Below are positions 3,046 through 28,220 of a stretch of DNA of 64,000 nt, piece after piece. The position numbers and the translations under genes were made by a program. The notes below the pieces were generated by a model. It worked only from the letters and a program-made list of their open reading frames with translations, made no database searches and was not told the DNA's origin. This DNA comes from a virus (taxonomy: Duplodnaviria; Heunggongvirae; Uroviricota; Caudoviricetes): the IMG/VR virus record IMGVR_UViG_2695420423_000004, one strand, 5' to 3'. Each line of letters opens with the position of its first letter. Position 1 is the stretch's first letter.

Positions 3046-3224
3046 GTATTTTTAAGTCGCGAATGCTATCTTTTCGCATCATATTGACCTTTTAATCGTT
3101 CAGGCTTATAGTTCCGCCGTCGTAGCAAATTCTGCGACCGGGTTTAGCAGCCTGAATGTTAGTGCGGACAACCGCAGATATCCGATATTGCGGTATTTTT
3201 GTGTCCGTAAAACCGCGTTACGCC

Positions 3225-3310
3225 CAAATTATGGTGGGGCGTGATGGGGAGGCTTCGGCCTGCTGGTTTCACTAACGCCAGTCTGCTAACCCCGTCACGT
3301 CCTGCCACCT
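3225..3310 (+). ncRNA. c4: c4-like antisense repressor RNA region (boundaries approximate)
   Basis: Sequence ctgctaacccc (about 3285-3295) is complementary to two GGTTTAGCAGC-type copies upstream (about 3141) and downstream (about 3311), the a1/a'/a2 layout expected for P1 c4; lies between Op51 and icd. Confidence 0.3.
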
Positions 3311-3359
3311 GTTTAGCAGCGGGTAGCAGGTTGTTAAACCTGTTAGTGAGGCCGTAACT

Positions 3360-5606: not shown

Positions 5607-6452
5607 ATGCTGGCTAAAGTCACTTTCCTGAGCTGTATAACGATGAGCGATTTTACTTTTTCTGGCTATGAATTGGCCTTCTTTGTAACACACTCCGGTC
5701 TATCCCGTAGCGCCGGGCATATCCTGTCGCAATGTGCAAATCTCGCGGCAACAACCAGTGAATACTTCATTCACAAGCCCCACCGCCTGATCGCGGCAGA
5801 AACTGGTTATAGCCAATCAACCGTCGTTCGTGCATTCCGTGAAGCTGTAAACAAAGGAATTCTATCTGTAGAGATTGTTATCGGCGATCACCGTGAACGT
5901 CGCGCTAACCTGTACCGGTTTACACCATCCTTTTTGGCCTTCGCACAACAAGCCAAAAATGCGCTGATTGAAAGCAAATTAAAGATCTCTTCAGCGGCAA
6001 CCAAGGTTAAAGCTGTTCTCGCTAAGACATTGGCTTTATTTAATTTTTTATCCACACCCCCATGTCAAAATGATACCCCCTCCCCCTGTCAGGATGACGT
6101 GGCAATAAAGAATAAGAAGTCACAAGTTAAAAAAACAAAAAGATCAGTTTCCGGCGGTGCCGGAACGACCAGACTCAAAAAATTGACTTCATGGATCGCT
6201 GAGGCAAAAGCAAAGGCTGACAATCTGCGGTTATCCAAAAAACGCGCTCAAAAACATGAGTTCAAGCAGAAAGTAGAGGCGGCAGCGCGGAAATATGCTT
6301 ACCTGAAGGACAAGCGTTCTCCTGATATTGGCGGGATATCAAACTTCGATAATCTGCCGCATTGCATGACGGTAAACGAAGCTCTTAATGCGGTTTTAGC
6401 CAAAAATAAAGATAACGAAAAATGGGGTATACCGGCAGGATTCAGGGGATGA
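5607..6452 (+). CDS. repL: RepL lytic replication initiator (oriL expected inside)
   Basis: 281 aa, same size as P1 RepL; directly downstream of kilA under the Op53-like operator. Confidence 0.8.
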   Translation: MLAKVTFLSCITMSDFTFSGYELAFFVTHSGLSRSAGHILSQCANLAATTSEYFIHKPHRLIAAETGYSQSTVVRAFREAVNKGILSVEIVIGDHRERRANLYRFTPSFLAFAQQAKNALIESKLKISSAATKVKAVLAKTLALFNFLSTPPCQNDTPSPCQDDVAIKNKKSQVKKTKRSVSGGAGTTRLKKLTSWIAEAKAKADNLRLSKKRAQKHEFKQKVEAAARKYAYLKDKRSPDIGGISNFDNLPHCMTVNEALNAVLAKNKDNEKWGIPAGFRG

Positions 6453-6502: not shown

Positions 6503-6769
6503 ATGCAATCTGATTTTTTACAGTTAGCGATCGCTTTTGCAGGATATGTTTGTATTGGCTTCTGTGTATACATGATCAGCCGAAAAATGCTTGTCGATAT
6601 CGACCGCAAAGAACGAGCAGAGGAGATCTTAGTATGGATTTTCTTTGGCGCGGTCTGGCCATTAGGGATCATGTTTGCTGCAACATTTCTTCGATGTGGA
6701 TATTCACCCTTCCAGGTGATTTCTATAGAAAAAAAGCCAGACATTGATACAATCGTTGCGGGTGCTTGA
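6503..6769 (+). CDS. small membrane protein (hypothetical)
   Basis: Track ORF 6422..6769; internal ATG at 6503 has a GGAG upstream; two hydrophobic segments. Confidence 0.3.
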   Translation: MQSDFLQLAIAFAGYVCIGFCVYMISRKMLVDIDRKERAEEILVWIFFGAVWPLGIMFAATFLRCGYSPFQVISIEKKPDIDTIVAGA

Positions 6770-6870
6770 GGCTATCTGCTTCAGGCATGACCCGAAAAGC
6801 AGATAGAAGAAAGCCCCAGATAACATTACGCGTCCTGCAAGACGCTTAACATTAATCTGAGGCCATATCT

Positions 6871-7077
6871 ATGCTTAGCATACGTAGATTAGCCTCTTAC
6901 CGACCAAAAGGTCAAGGAGAAGCAGGCTATGAAGCAGCAAAAAGCGATGTTAATCGCTCTGATCGTCATCTGTTTAACCGTCATTGTGACGGCACTGGTA
7001 ACGAGGAAAGACCTCTGCGAGGTACGAATCCGAACCGGCCAGACGGAGGTCACTGTCTTCACAGCCTACGAATCTGA
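6871..7077 (+). CDS. mok-like overlapping reading frame of the hok locus
   Basis: 68-aa ORF overlapping the hok frame in a different phase, as mok does in hok/sok loci. Confidence 0.35.
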   Translation: MLSIRRLASYRPKGQGEAGYEAAKSDVNRSDRHLFNRHCDGTGNEERPLRGTNPNRPDGGHCLHSLRI

Positions 7078-21525: not shown

Positions 21526-23786
21526 AAGAGCTGTGCTATGGATCTGTTTGCAGTGGAATTGAAGCCGCGAGTATTGCCTGGGAACCGTTGGGTATGCGTC
21601 CGGCGTGGTTTGCTGAAATCGAGCCTTTTCCATCTGCCGTTCTTGCGCACCGCTGGCCCCATGTCGCCAACCTTGGCGACATGACAAAACTTGCCAAAAA
21701 AGTCCTGGCTGGGGAAATCGAATCCCCTGATGTGCTCGTCGGGGGTACGCCTTGTCAGGCATTCAGTATCGCGGGCTTACGTGGTGGGCTTGATGATGAA
21801 CGCGGCGCGCTAACTTTGAAGTATGTGGAGCTTGCAAATGCAATTGACGACAAACGGTCTGAGTCCTTCCTCAAACCGACAGTTATCGTCTGGGAAAATG
21901 TCCCAGGAGTCCTGTCATCGGCAGATAACGCCTTCGGATGTTTCCTTGCCGGATTGGCTGGAGAAGATGCGCCATTTGAACCAGGTGATCGACCTGAATC
22001 AGGAAAAAGTAACGCGTTCTGGCGGTGGGATGGCAAAACCGGTTGCCATGCTCCAAAGTGGCCGCAGTGTGGTTGTATTTATGGACCGCAGCGAAAGGTG
22101 GCCTGGAGAATCCTTGATGCCCAATACTTCGGAGTGGCACAACGACGCCGACGCGTGTTTGTTGTCGCAAGTGCTCGAACAGACTTCGATCCCGCAACGG
22201 TACTTTTTGAGTTCGAAGGCGTGCGCCGGAATATTGCGCCGAGCCGAAAAAAGAAGGAAATCGCTTCCGCCATTACTGCAAATGGCGCTGCAATCAGTGG
22301 CGAAAGCCTAAATCCATGCCTACACGCTGGCATGTCCCCCGGTATGAAATCGACGAAATCCGTAAACGGTTTCAGGATGGCGGCATTTGGGGAATATATT
22401 GACGATGAAACCGCATCGACAGTAAAGGCAAGAGACTTTAAAGATGCCACTGACCTTGCCGTTTTTAGCAGCACTGGAGCAGGTTTTTGGTCAGAAGGGC
22501 ATGGTACATTGCGGGCGCGTGAGCAAGAAAGCCATGAGCATCTTGTTACATTGGCTTTTCCTGAGCGTATGAGTGGTACACAACATGCAGCAACTAAGAA
22601 TACTTCACCATCTCTAATGGCTCAAAATCCAACTGCTGTTTGCTATGAAGTAAGAAACGAAGAAGTAGCTGTCCGCCGTCTTACCCCTGTCGAATGTGAG
22701 AGACTTCAAGGTTTTCCTGATGGGCATACATTGATCCCTACGGAAAAGCGTAAAAAAGTTAATTCAGATGAACTGGCATATCTGCACAATCACTATCCAG
22801 ATTTAAGCGAAGAAGAGGCCGCAATGCTTGCAGCTGACGGACCGCGTTACAAAGCGATCGGCAATAGTATGGCGATACCAGTAATGCGCTGGATTGGCGA
22901 TCGGATTGCCAAGGCTGCATGTCGGCAGAAGGAAGGGAGTGAAACAAAAGAGCGAAAAGTTAAACCAGCGGCAGAATTCGAACGGTCCATATTCAAATGG
23001 GCTGGTGGAAAATTTGGTGTTCTGGAACAAATCTTTCGCTATTTGCCAGAAGGGAAGCGCCTGATTGAACCTTTCGTTGGTGGCGGAGCTGTCTTCATGA
23101 ATGCCGGATACCAGGAAAATCTGCTAAATGATGTGAATGCTGACCTGATTAACTTTTACAAGACTCTGCAACGCGAGGCGCATTCACTTATCACTCTGGC
23201 ACATCGTTTCTTCCAGGACTACAACACGCAGGAAGGATACCTGGCAGTACGGAATGCGTTTAACAAACAAGTCTATGATGATTTACATCGCGCAGCGGCG
23301 TTTTTGTTCCTGAACCGACATTGTTTTAACGGATTGACGCGTTACAACCAAGCCGGTGAGTTCAATGTCGGTTATGGGAAGTATAAAACTCCGTATTTCC
23401 CATTGCAGGAGATGGAAGCCTTCCTTGGTGCGGAAGGGCGTTCTGAGTTTGTATGTGGTGATTTTGCTGCGGTGATTGAAGCTGCCGGAGAAGGAGATGT
23501 CATCTTTTGCGATCCGCCGTATGAACCGCTCCCAAATACAGAGGGATTCACGAACTATTCCGGTCATGACTTTAAGTTTGAAGAGCAAAAACGCCTGGCG
23601 TCTCTGTTGACGGATGCTCATCGCCGAGGTGCAAAGGTTCTCATTACTAACAGTGGCGCGCCAAACATCAGAGAACTTTATCAGGACAGTGGCTTCAGAG
23701 TGGAACCTCTTTTTGCCAGACGTTCTGTGTCTTGTAAGGGGGACACTCGAGGTGTTGCTCATGACGTTATAGCAATATTGCTCTAA
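21522..23786 (+). CDS. dmt: bifunctional DNA methyltransferase Dmt (C5-cytosine domain plus Dam-like N6-adenine domain)
   Basis: 754 aa, the size of P1 Dmt; N-terminal cytosine-MTase-like region, C-terminal DPPY motif (IFCDPPYEP). Confidence 0.85.
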
Positions 23787-23793
23787 TAAATTT
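23777..23793 (+). promoter_or_regulatory. C1 operator (perfect consensus) overlapping the dmt stop; part of a palindrome
   Basis: attgctctaataaattt, 17 of 17; embedded in the 16-bp palindrome ctaataaatttattag. Confidence 0.65.
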
Positions 23794-23970
23794 ATTAGTG
23801 TAATATCGCCTCAATGAATCGTGATTTATAGAGCGATTTAGCTGTTAGCCGCGACAGGCGCGGCGGCAAGTATGGCGGGGTAGTGACTCCTTCCCCCTCA
23901 TGACGCCGAGTTGCCAGGTTGACCATACGCCTAAGTGGCAACACCGAAGTGCGTTACGAGCTTCCAGTTT

Positions 23971-23996
23971 GCCCATCTTCGGGTGGGCGTTTTTTT
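23971..23996 (+). terminator. intrinsic terminator after dmt
   Basis: gcccatc-ttcg-ggtgggc hairpin followed by T7. Confidence 0.6.
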
Positions 23997-24461
23997 CAGG
24001 GTTTTCGTCATGGTTAGCGACTTTGCGGCGGTTTAGAAACTGACCATTAAAGTAAATGCAAACGATGATCTGATGATGGTAGCGGCCTAAGAAGCCAGAC
24101 GCCACGGGGTATGAGTCGTCCCCCGTCAAAAAATCGACCGCAGAGTGTCCCCGTCTGTGTATTAGGGAACGGGGAGGCACAACAGGTAAGGGCGCTGGTG
24201 TGATTAACCAGATGAACGAGAAGGGGCCATCTGTTGGTCAGCGTCCTTTCCTGTTGCGTCTTCTTTTCAGCGTAACAGCGGTGCTTAACAGCACTTTGGG
24301 TACAGTTCCACGAATTTACGGGTATATCCCGTCATGCTGAAAGCGCTAATCACGCTGGAAGCCAGGGTTATGCATCCCCTGTTACCGAATTGCAGCCAGG
24401 GCGCGGTGCGCCGAAAAGCATACGGAGGTGGAAGCCCTCGCCGGAGACGTACCCGGCAAGT

Positions 24462-24536
24462 GATGGTGTAGCTCAGCGGTAGAGCAGTTGGCTGTTAACC
24501 AACTGGTCGGTGGTTCGAATCCACCCACCATCGCCA
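24462..24536 (+). tRNA. trnA: tRNA-Asn (anticodon GTT)
   Basis: Hand-folded cloverleaf: acceptor gatggtg/caccatc, anticodon loop ctGTTaa, T-loop ttcgaat, encoded CCA. Confidence 0.8.
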
Positions 24537-24541
24537 CTTTA

Positions 24542-24628
24542 GGGGAGTTAGTCCGTAGGGGTAGCGGGGTAGACTGTAAATCTACTGTCATTGCGACTCG
24601 GGTGGTTCGACTCCATCACTCCCCACCA
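24542..24628 (+). tRNA. tRNA-like gene with long variable arm, anticodon GTA (Tyr-like)
   Basis: Acceptor ggggagt/actcccc, anticodon stem-loop gtaga-ctGTAaa-tctac nearly identical to E. coli tRNA-Tyr, T-loop ttcgact, CCA; the D-arm is atypical. Confidence 0.5.
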
Positions 24629-24632
24629 AATT

Positions 24633-24708
24633 GCCGATTTAGCTCAGTTGGTAGAGCAGTCGCTTTGTAAGCGAATGGTCAGCGGTTCGATCCCGTTAAT
24701 CGGCACCA
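24633..24708 (+). tRNA. trnT: tRNA-Thr (anticodon TGT)
   Basis: Acceptor gccgatt/aatcggc, anticodon loop ttTGTaa, T-loop ttcgatc, CCA. Confidence 0.8.
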
Positions 24709-25290
24709 ACATAACAGGTAAGAGCATTCTCCCTTATGGGGCCTGGCTTAAATGCATCGAGTGCTCTTACCGTTGTGATGAAGTGCAGCTCTTTGAAGCA
24801 ACCAGAAGATAAGCATCTGGCTTCACAACATAAACCGCAGGAACGACCAATAAACGGTAGTCCGTATGGAGAACACCCCGTTGAGGAAGAGGCCTGGCCG
24901 GAACCGTAACCGGCACTACAACGTTGAGAACACTGGCGTAACGGGGTCATATCCCAATCTACGAATAAATGTTGCGTTGCAGCGTGACAACCAGTGTTCT
25001 CAACATTGTGGTGAATGCACAGGCTGATGTGCCGCAACTACAGTAGTGCGCGCTTTGCGGGGCTTGCTACAACCCTGTGTCGGAGTTCAGCACCGACCAT
25101 CACAGTTTGATTCTCTGGCATGAGCATAACGCTGAAATAAGTCCAGCCTGGTGCGGCCCGATCACCCGCCGTTAGCTCCACGAAACGGAGCACGTAACAG
25201 GTAAGAGCATTCTCCTGTAACGGGTTCATATCCCAATCTACAGGTCCACCAAGAATGCTCTTTCCGTTGCGGTGAATGCGGCTAAGCGCA
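24709..25290 (+). repeat. non-coding region with duplicated hairpin-forming modules
   Basis: Exact 20-mer aacaggtaagagcattctcc at 24713 and 25196 (partial third copy at 24181); 24-mer taacgggg(t)tcatatcccaatctac at 24939 and 25218; several inverted repeats. Confidence 0.4.
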
Positions 25291-26493: not shown

Positions 26494-26569
26494 GGCCCTT
26501 TAGCTCAGTGGTTAGAGCTGGCGACTCATAATCGCACGGTCACCGGTTCAAGTCCGGTAGGGGCCACCA
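26494..26569 (+). tRNA. trnI: tRNA-Ile2 (anticodon CAT, lysidine type)
   Basis: Near-identical to E. coli ileX over the whole length; anticodon loop ctCATaa, CCA. Confidence 0.8.
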
Positions 26570-26849: not shown

Positions 26850-28220
26850 GTGCTAATGTCTGCATCCCCTCTTGAATCCATGCCAAATTCCCTTAGTGCA
26901 GAACAAGCTGTACTTGGTGGCTTAATGCTTGATAACTGCCGCTGGGATGAAGTTGCAGATCGTATAGTTGCTGATGATTTTTATACCAGTGCTCATCGTG
27001 AAATTTTCAGTGAGATGGAGAGGTTATTAAGTCATGGCAAACCGATTGATTTGATAACACTTGCTGAAGCACTTGAACAGAACGGTAAATTAGAACGCGC
27101 CGGTGGTTTTGCGTACCTTGCGGAGATGTCAAAGAACACGCCCAGCGCGGCAAATATTTGTGCTTATGCGGATATCGTTCGTGAACGCGCGGTTGTTCGT
27201 GAAATGATTTCCGTCGCAAATGAAATAGCCGAAGCTGGATATGCGCAGGATGGCAGGGGCAGCAATGAATTGCTGGATATGGCCGAGCGCCGCGTTTTTG
27301 AAATAGCTGAAAAACGACAAAAGAGCGGTAGTGGTCCAAAAGATATCGCCAGCATTCTCGATGCAACGGTATCTCGCATAGAAGAGTTGTTTCAGCGACC
27401 ACATGATGGTGTAACGGGGCTTGATACGGGATTTACCGATCTCAATAAGAAGACGGCAGGGCTTCAGCCGTCCGAACTCATCATTGTCGCCGCCCGCCCA
27501 TCTATGGGGAAGACCACGTTTGCGATGAATCTCGTCGAAAATGCCGCAGTTCGTAACGATAAGCCCGTATTGGTTTTTAGCCTTGAGATGCCGAGCCACC
27601 AGCTGATGATGCGCTCACTGGCTTCTCTTGCACGCGTTGATCAGACTCGTATTCGGACAGGGCAACTTAACGACGAGGATTGGGCGCGGGTTTCTGGCGC
27701 AATGGGTATTCTGTTGGACAAGCAGAATATTTTTATTGATGACTCAAGCGCCCTGACGCCGACAGAGCTACGTTCCCGCGCTCGTCGTGTTTATAAAGAA
27801 AATGGTGGTTTGAGCATGATTATGATCGACTACCTGCAACTTATGCGCGTCCCCGAGCTGCAAGATAACCGAACGCTGGAAATTGCCGAGATTTCTCGCT
27901 CACTGAAGGCGTTGGCGAAGGAATTACAAGTACCGGTGGTGGCATTGTCACAACTTAATCGATCGCTTGAACAGCGTGCGGACAAACGACCGGTAAATTC
28001 AGATTTACGTGAATCAGGAGCAATTGAGCAGGACGCAGACCTGATTATGTTTCTGTATCGCGACGAAGTTTATCACCCGGATAGCGAAATGAAGGGCATT
28101 GCCGAGGTAATTATCGGAAAGCAACGAAATGGCCCAATTGGCACGGTGAGATTGGCTTTTAACGGCCAATACTCACGGTTTGATAACTATGCCGGTGCTG
28201 ACTGGCAAGAGGATTATTAA
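26850..28220 (+). CDS. ban: Ban, DnaB-family replicative helicase
   Basis: 456 aa, collinear with E. coli DnaB; Walker A ARPSMGKTTF. Confidence 0.9.
   Translation: MLMSASPLESMPNSLSAEQAVLGGLMLDNCRWDEVADRIVADDFYTSAHREIFSEMERLLSHGKPIDLITLAEALEQNGKLERAGGFAYLAEMSKNTPSAANICAYADIVRERAVVREMISVANEIAEAGYAQDGRGSNELLDMAERRVFEIAEKRQKSGSGPKDIASILDATVSRIEELFQRPHDGVTGLDTGFTDLNKKTAGLQPSELIIVAARPSMGKTTFAMNLVENAAVRNDKPVLVFSLEMPSHQLMMRSLASLARVDQTRIRTGQLNDEDWARVSGAMGILLDKQNIFIDDSSALTPTELRSRARRVYKENGGLSMIMIDYLQLMRVPELQDNRTLEIAEISRSLKALAKELQVPVVALSQLNRSLEQRADKRPVNSDLRESGAIEQDADLIMFLYRDEVYHPDSEMKGIAEVIIGKQRNGPIGTVRLAFNGQYSRFDNYAGADWQEDY

Follow-up and report, generated by a model that had tools for sequence, protein, structure and literature searches.

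A tRNA-Tyr gene with a non-canonical D-arm in the tRNA cassette of a P1-like phage-plasmid

The tRNA genes of phage P1 (NC_005856) and its relative P7 (AF503408) are described as one each for Asn, Thr and Ile (trnA, trnT and trnI), a description with which the annotation of both phages agrees. The Asn and Thr genes lie 2 nt apart with nothing between them, and since they abut, P1 and P7 have no tRNA-Tyr. Phage tyrosine tRNAs are known experimentally from the T5 family. Azam et al. 2024, who studied the tRNA-Tyr of T5, SP15 and KpP_HS106, reported that the PtuAB effectors of retron-Eco7 deplete host tRNA-Tyr and that T5-family tRNA-Tyr rescues the phage; the rescue was abolished by mutations in the anticodon or the stems, needed a very strong phage promoter, and was achieved equally well by over-expressed E. 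coli tRNA-Tyr (PMC11555353). According to the T5 sequence record, moreover, replacement of the anticodon makes T5 tRNA-Tyr an effective amber suppressor. Together, the suppressor and rescue experiments show that the T5 homologue works in translation. Here we analyse an 87-nt element at positions 24542-24628 of a 64,000-nt stretch of viral DNA (IMG/VR record IMGVR_UViG_2695420423_000004, Caudoviricetes), hereafter the window. The element lies between a tRNA-Asn and a tRNA-Thr gene, and the original prediction, made from the sequence without database searches, had offered either an additional tRNA-Tyr or a decayed pseudo-tRNA. We conclude that it is very probably an intact, functional bacterial class II tRNA-Tyr gene of a family that circulates among coliphages.

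Anatomy of the gene and its family

ARAGORN calls four tRNA genes in the window, among them a tRNA-Tyr(gta) with the anticodon at position 35. Its coordinates agree with the limits proposed earlier and place the gene 5 nt behind tRNA-Asn and 4 nt ahead of tRNA-Thr. The generic Rfam tRNA model RF00005 matches positions 24542-24625 over its full length (model positions 1-71) with 41.9 bits, well above the gathering threshold of 29 (E = 1.7e-5 in the whole window, 3e-8 locally), so that the poor covariance score considered beforehand as a mark of a pseudogene did not appear. Segmentation recovers the predicted anatomy. The 7-bp acceptor stem is GGGGAGU/ACUCCCC, the anticodon arm GUAGA-CUGUAAA-UCUAC has a 7-nt loop with U33, the variable region of 15 nt encloses a 3-bp stem, and the T-arm GGUGG-UUCGACU-CCAUC carries a loop that fits UUCRANY. 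G1-C72 is present, and at the 3' end an encoded CCA follows the discriminator A73. Each of the 24 pairs of the cloverleaf is a standard one, and the minimum free energy (MFE) fold of the single sequence is a cloverleaf. A long variable arm, A73 and G1-C72 are identity elements for tyrosyl-tRNA synthetase (TyrRS). The near identity of the anticodon stem-loop to that of E. coli tRNA-Tyr was likewise borne out, as the arm of K-12 tyrU (GCAGA-CUGUAAA-UCUGC) differs by one compensated pair and has the same loop. Given two independent predictors, the cloverleaf MFE fold and the covariation across homologues described below, the element is far beyond what chance would produce.

The D-arm had been called atypical, and rightly so. 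The connector between acceptor stem and D-stem (UAGU) has 4 nt where canonical tRNAs have 2 (positions 8-9), the stem has 4 bp (CCGU/GCGG) and the loop 7 nt (AGGGGUA). This register was picked by the Rfam alignment and, independently, by the single-sequence MFE fold. ARAGORN imposes the canonical 2-nt connector and draws only two D-stem pairs.

The D-arm can be judged against its homologues. A pattern scan of IMG/VR viral contigs yielded about 120 phage tRNA-Tyr genes of at most 78% identity, a set too diverse for clean alignment, and we therefore took the covariation set from BLAST hits. It comprises 15 aligned homologues, chosen to span a range of divergence, from T4-like, rV5-like, Certrevirus, Jiaodavirus, T5-like, Epseptimavirus, FelixO1-like and Enterococcus phages. 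In the register with the 4-nt connector 98.9% of the alignment cells are standard pairs and 14 of the 24 pairs show compensatory changes, values that none of 500 shuffles reached; slid controls pair at 47-63%. The D-stem in this register is paired in 100% of cases and includes two compensatory pairs, seen as CUGU/GCAG and UCGU/GCGA in T5-like phages. The canonical register drawn by ARAGORN was rejected, as it leaves the D-stem paired in only 28% across the family, and an optional fifth D-stem pair between connector base 4 and position 26 was likewise dropped because inspection of the alignment found it not conserved. The layout common to the family is a UA+NN connector, a 4-bp YYGU/GCRR stem and a loop of 7-8 nt. 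A73, G1-C72 and the loop bases U33-A38 are invariant among the 15 members; C32 is nearly so, being replaced by U in one. Because the D-stem is conserved and covaries in the shifted register, the odd D-arm is a conserved, selected trait of the family and not a product of decay, and the long connector is a family-wide variant rather than damage. Of the alternatives offered originally, the additional tRNA-Tyr is thus upheld by predictors and covariation, while the decayed gene is contradicted by intact stems and by a D-arm that the whole family shares.

Several distantly related tRNA-Tyr genes of metagenomic phages in IMG/VR (contigs L058, L096 at 2348-2434, L071, L068 at 6159-6243, and L045) have, by eye, a connector of 3-4 nt, a CCG(C)/(G)CGG stem of 3-4 bp and a short loop. 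On this visual comparison, the non-canonical D-arm seems to be widespread among tRNA-Tyr genes of phages outside the coliphage family as well.

The family itself is large. The 87-nt gene finds matches in 1,524 phage records, and 1,359 of these span 80% or more of the gene. Of the records, 450 are 90-95% identical (Tequatrovirus, Vequintavirus); identity is about 85% to Jiaodavirus and 77-85% to T5-like and FelixO1-like members. Most copies are annotated as tRNA-Tyr, with an occasional "tRNA-OTHER", "Pseudo", "Val" or "Trp". Records with such deviant labels ("tRNA-Pseudo-GTA/OTHER", tRNA-Val, tRNA-Trp) include MZ398246 (IME178), OL656107 (UAB_60), MZ079855 (vB_Kpn_3) and NC_055831. RF00005 gives 30.2 bits to the copy of phage RB18 and 29.9 bits to that of LL12, while T5-like and FelixO1-like copies fall below the threshold and host tyrU itself reaches 53.4; the score of the window copy is therefore high for its phage family. 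The conserved non-canonical D-arm lowers generic scores and in this way sometimes yields "pseudo" or "other" annotations, and the deviant labels in the family look like annotation artefacts of these low generic tRNA scores.

The Asn-Tyr-Thr cassette and its surroundings

The tRNA content of the window (Asn, Tyr, Thr, Ile) differs from that of P1 and P7 by more than an inserted gene. P1 and P7 match the window at 98-99% identity from the operator and promoter of the ban operon (Op72/P1ban) through the dicF-like region and as far as the opening bases of tRNA-Asn. Identity to P1 of about 100% resumes at about position 24781 and extends to trnI (100%). In between, the window tRNA-Asn is 89.5% identical to its P1 counterpart, 96% to that of phage N4 and 100% to that of the phage-plasmid CMS-2020a, and tRNA-Thr is 87% identical to P1 trnT, 98.7% to the gene of CMS-2020a and 80.5% to that of N4. 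Since its tRNA-Asn and tRNA-Thr are divergent alleles, the whole cassette differs from P1. Asn-Tyr-Thr is a divergent cassette of about 320 bp that replaces the Asn-Thr pair of P1 and P7 between flanks of about 98-100% identity. The element is absent from reference P1, hence no non-functional annotation exists there, which had been considered as a possible refutation.

CMS-2020a carries the same Asn-Tyr-Thr block with 98.4% identity (window positions 24458-24714), and the 1.5 kb upstream of its block match nothing anywhere in the 64-kb window. The block thus behaves as a discrete cassette of mosaic origin that has its limits at tRNA-gene ends or close to them and is swapped between backbones. 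The tRNA cluster of P1-like elements is a small exchangeable cassette with breakpoints at these ends, and it shows recombination between temperate phage-plasmids and virulent phages.

P7 and CMS-2020a share a further tRNA-like element of 87 nt that is absent from the window. It is identical in P7 (L003, AF503408; 2263-2349) and CMS-2020a (L006, CP054387; 2239-2325), lies some 450-500 nt downstream of tRNA-Thr and is without annotation in P7. ARAGORN calls it tRNA-Ser(tga), and the Rfam tRNA model scores it under the gathering threshold. The MFE fold closes with a terminal helix of 9 bp and shows a D-like stem of 5 bp capped by a 3-nt loop, together with a long variable arm and G73-CCA; this shape presumably resembles the 8/4 or 9/3 "allo-tRNAs".

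The Tyr-bearing cassette is not rare. The closest phage record, vB_EcoM-Ro157c2YLVW (MH160767/NC_050153), is 99.2% identical over positions 24300-24900 and 100% over tRNA-Tyr. The full-length block occurs in 243 PLSDB plasmids, mainly of Escherichia and Shigella, with the best match (100%) in an E. fergusonii plasmid, and in 269 of 5,426 complete E. coli genomes, always plasmid-borne and at 97-100% identity. RefSeq/PGAP annotates it as "tRNA-Tyr | tRNA-Thr | tRNA-Asn" with no pseudogene flag. Of the complete E. coli genomes, about 400-480 have the P1-type Asn|Thr junction and 545-561 the conserved upstream region; these figures do not sum with the 269, and the junction count probably also includes other phage-plasmid lineages. 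Roughly, the Tyr-bearing cassette is a common allele that makes up a third or more of P1-like cassettes. The statement that P1 encodes tRNAs for Asn, Thr and Ile is therefore true for the reference phage, and a third or more of the cassettes add tRNA-Tyr. As it is routinely annotated in public records, the tRNA-Tyr gene is not new: it is already known from the nearest phage genome and from hundreds of plasmids. Our full-text literature searches found no paper on tRNA-Tyr in P1-like elements or on Ro157c2YLVW.

The tRNA cluster has the same location as in P1: Op72/P1ban and the dicF-like region precede it, and trnI and ban follow. Read along the operon, the order is operator/promoter, dicF-like region, tRNA genes, a gene for an SPFH/Band-7 lipoprotein, trnI and ban (Table 1). 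The lipoprotein gene occupies the slot between tRNA-Thr and trnI that holds tciA/tciB/tciC in P1, and its homologue in Ro157c2YLVW is labelled "putative serine protease". The long hairpin behind tRNA-Thr lies inside the stretch that diverges from P1 (low identity over 24700-24780) and hence moves together with the cassette; a role in processing or stabilisation is possible.

Table 1. Coordinates of the tRNA-Tyr gene and of features of the ban operon in the window
Feature	Position	Strand	Basis
Op72 (Oban a/b), C1 operator overlapping the P1ban promoter	23777-23806	+	Identical to P1 NC_005856 annotation, by alignment
P1ban boxes	-35 at 23778-23783, -10 at 23801-23806	+	P1 annotation
dicF-like region	23904-24006	+	P1 annotation, transferred at 98-99% identity
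Terminator-like hairpin and T-run, end of dicF-like region	23967-23989	+	Terminator scan
tRNA-Asn(GUU), first gene of the cassette	24462-24536	+	ARAGORN; Rfam 75.5 bits
tRNA-Tyr(GUA), 87 nt, class II	24542-24628	+	ARAGORN, Rfam, MFE cloverleaf, covariation, identity to MH160767
tRNA-Thr(UGU), third gene of the cassette	24633-24708	+	ARAGORN; Rfam 67.8 bits
Long imperfect hairpin directly after tRNA-Thr, no T-run	24716-24772	+	MFE -33.9 kcal/mol, z = -4.2
SPFH/Band-7 lipoprotein gene, 275 aa	25639-26466	+	Open reading frame list; Pfam PF01145, 9.7e-31
tRNA-Ile2 (CAU; "Met" according to ARAGORN), P1 trnI	26494-26569	+	ARAGORN; Rfam 64.7 bits; 100% identical to P1
ban, DnaB-like replicative helicase, distal gene of the operon	26850-28220	+	Open reading frame list; Pfam DnaB_C 1e-107, DnaB 2.8e-35

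Two further RNA features were found outside the operon. The C4 antisense RNA and the a1/b1 sites that it targets, at 3106-3158 and 3227-3312 (plus strand, Rfam), represent the immI immunity region of P1, and their presence confirms the window as a P1-type element. A match to the sok antitoxin RNA at 6760-6934 (plus strand; Rfam RF01794, 113.9 bits) implies a post-segregational killing module of the hok/sok type on this P1-like element.

Possible role and rival explanations

The role of the gene is most likely that of topping up tRNA-Tyr during lytic growth. Judging from the annotation of P1 and the high identity to it, the array would be transcribed together with its neighbours from the C1-repressed promoter P1ban (Op72) once the prophage is derepressed. 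By general knowledge of tRNA maturation, RNase P would cut at each downstream 5' end and free the upstream tRNA with a trailer of 4-5 nt, and exonucleases would then trim the trailers back to the encoded CCA, as is usual for E. coli tRNAs. The identity elements and the experiments on the T5 homologue lead us to expect charging by host TyrRS, which would recognise the GUA anticodon, A73 and the long variable arm, and with its UGU and AAA motifs the loop should be open to the usual modifications, queuosine at position 34 and that of A37. The charged tRNA would enlarge the pool that reads UAC and UAU in lytic growth. Its benefit may be a mixture of two effects, a supply for the slightly higher demand for Tyr codons in the phage and a buffer against loss of host tRNA-Tyr. 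In a crude comparison, in which ATG-started open reading frames of 120 aa or more were measured against one 49-kb stretch of host sequence with many ribosomal protein genes, Tyr codons amount to 31.9 per 1000 in the window against 25.7 in the host (TAT, 18.0 against 12.2), and ACA and ATA, codons served by the classical tRNAs of P1, are enriched 1.8-fold and 3.3-fold.

Several observations weigh against this interpretation. The excess of Tyr codons is small, and it comes from crude calls of reading frames set against a single host sample. P1 and P7 do well without tRNA-Tyr, so the gene is dispensable. The D-arm, with its 4-nt connector, departs from the canonical tRNA layout, and the folding energy of the gene is about that of shuffled sequence (z = -0.67), which is usual for tRNAs and uninformative. 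The terminator-like hairpin at the end of the dicF-like region separates the C1-controlled promoter from the tRNA genes, and a sigma-70 scan, which also missed the annotated P1ban, revealed no consensus promoter nearer to them; the promoter assignment consequently rests on the annotation of P1. With this hairpin in between and no nearer promoter, transcription of the array requires read-through or an unrecognised promoter.

It is also possible, if on the unlikely side, that the tRNA works in translation and is kept mainly for counter-defence, by restoring tRNA-Tyr that host immunity depletes or cleaves. The rescue of T5 from retron-Eco7 needs a functional tRNA (PMC11555353) and the window copy is 83.5% identical to the one of T5; the rationale from codon usage is weak for Tyr compared with ACA and ATA; and the cassette moves between backbones as a module, like many accessory anti-defence genes. 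Furthermore, it couples Tyr with Asn, both of which are targets of colicin E5, a type of anticodon nuclease that cuts the UQU loops of Tyr, His, Asn and Asp tRNAs (PMC1669751, PMC1635277). However, the rescue in T5 is a dosage effect, as follows from the need for a strong promoter and from the equal effectiveness of over-expressed host tRNA, and we found no dedicated promoter for the array in the window. The anticodon loop CUGUAAA is moreover that of the host, so that the tRNA would resupply the pool and would not itself escape cleavage. A more specific version, which we regard as quite unlikely, sees in Asn-Tyr-Thr a mobile counter-defence module, put together from tRNA genes of virulent phages and swapped into the C1-controlled ban operon. 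Its sources would be an N4-like Asn gene and a T4-, rV5- or T5-type Tyr gene; on induction it would make good the loss of the very host tRNAs, Tyr and Asn with their UQU loops, that effectors of the retron-Eco7 type or anticodon nucleases of the colicin E5 type destroy, and the D-arm with its 4-nt connector could also alter recognition by such nucleases. A temperate phage-plasmid with a tRNA-Tyr gene behind a repressor-controlled promoter is relevant to whether temperate elements use the trick by which phage tRNA-Tyr defeats a tRNA-Tyr-depleting retron.

Alternatively, the gene may be a functional but nearly neutral passenger, brought in when co-infecting phages recombined at similar tRNA genes and exchanged the whole cassette, an explanation we judge unlikely. 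The cassette is indeed a mosaic, with Asn 96% identical to N4, Tyr 92-93% to T4-like and rV5-like phages and flanks of about 98-100% to P1, and both cassette types are common (269 genomes with Asn-Tyr-Thr, roughly 400-480 with Asn|Thr). The full viability of P1 and P7 points in the same direction. Yet the gene is intact, has every stem paired and resides in hundreds of plasmids at 97-100% identity, and compensatory changes indicate strong purifying selection family-wide, which bears on the family rather than on the P1-like lineage specifically. That the element is a relic no longer processed or charged is highly improbable. The D-arm off the canonical register, the two D-stem pairs drawn by ARAGORN, the score of 41.9 bits below the 65-76 bits of the neighbouring tRNAs and the few family records labelled "tRNA-OTHER" or "Pseudo" would fit such decay. 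But distant phages have kept the same D-arm layout, which covaries among them, no pairing is lost in any stem, nothing is missing from the identity elements, the T-loop or the CCA end, and differences from relatives are compensated. Host tyrU itself reaches only 53.4 bits, and experimentally supported members of the family score below the window copy. PGAP sets no pseudogene flag. Barely conceivable, finally, is a tRNA-shaped element without a translational role, as RNase P punctuation of the ban transcript or as a target of recombination or attachment. tRNA-like structures can act as processing signals, and the boundaries of the cassette coincide with tRNA-gene ends. A mere processing signal, however, would not need the anticodon loop, A73 and CCA that are invariant or nearly so in the family, and the T5 homologue acts in decoding. 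As plasmid prophages, moreover, elements of the P1 type are not known to use tRNA genes for integration.

Comparison with known systems

The gene shares several features with those of the host. K-12 tyrU and tyrT are likewise class II with A73, G1-C72, a long variable arm and an encoded CCA, and tyrU has the same 20 nt between acceptor stem and anticodon stem. Overall identity to tyrU is 68.9%, and in the D-arm of tyrU the connector is 2 nt long, the stem 3 bp and the loop 11 nt, where the window gene has 4 nt, 4 bp and 7 nt.

Closer relatives are found in virulent phages. The tRNA-Tyr of T4-like (Tequatrovirus, RB18) and rV5-like (Vequintavirus, LL12) phages, 92-93% identical to the window copy, agree with it in length (87 nt) and in the layout of the D-arm and match it exactly in the variable and T arms. 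The differences concern the two connector bases that exceed the canonical layout, a single base of the D-loop, position 26 and compensated pairs of the anticodon stem, and the genes are set in the large tRNA arrays of lytic phages with the neighbours Ile-Tyr-Asn (RB18) or Arg-Tyr-Ser (LL12). The T5 gene (T5t22) shares the connector, the layout of D-stem and D-loop and the exact variable and T arms with the window copy, from which it departs by the compensatory D-stem CUGU/GCAG. In virulent T5 a strong promoter of its own (P14a) drives the gene, whereas the window copy is part of a repressor-controlled operon in a temperate plasmid prophage.

With regard to the cassette, phage N4 has an Asn-Ser(UGA)-Thr array that parallels the window in its outer gene order, its spacers of 5 nt and 4 nt and the right-hand junction CCA-AATT-GC. 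Its middle gene is only 58% identical to the window tRNA-Tyr and is not homologous to it; a tRNA-Tyr remoulded from this tRNA-Ser in the same slot was considered and rejected, as the arms do not align. P1 and P7 share the operon, its operator/promoter, the dicF-like region and trnI with the window, and have the two-gene Asn-Thr arrangement in place of the cassette. The closest correspondence is that with Ro157c2YLVW, in which tRNA-Asn, tRNA-Tyr(gta) and tRNA-Thr are annotated in the same order, with the same spacers and on a backbone of the Punavirus type; between the window, this phage and P1-like RefSeq plasmids such as pE2855-2 (NZ_AP018798) nothing of substance differs.

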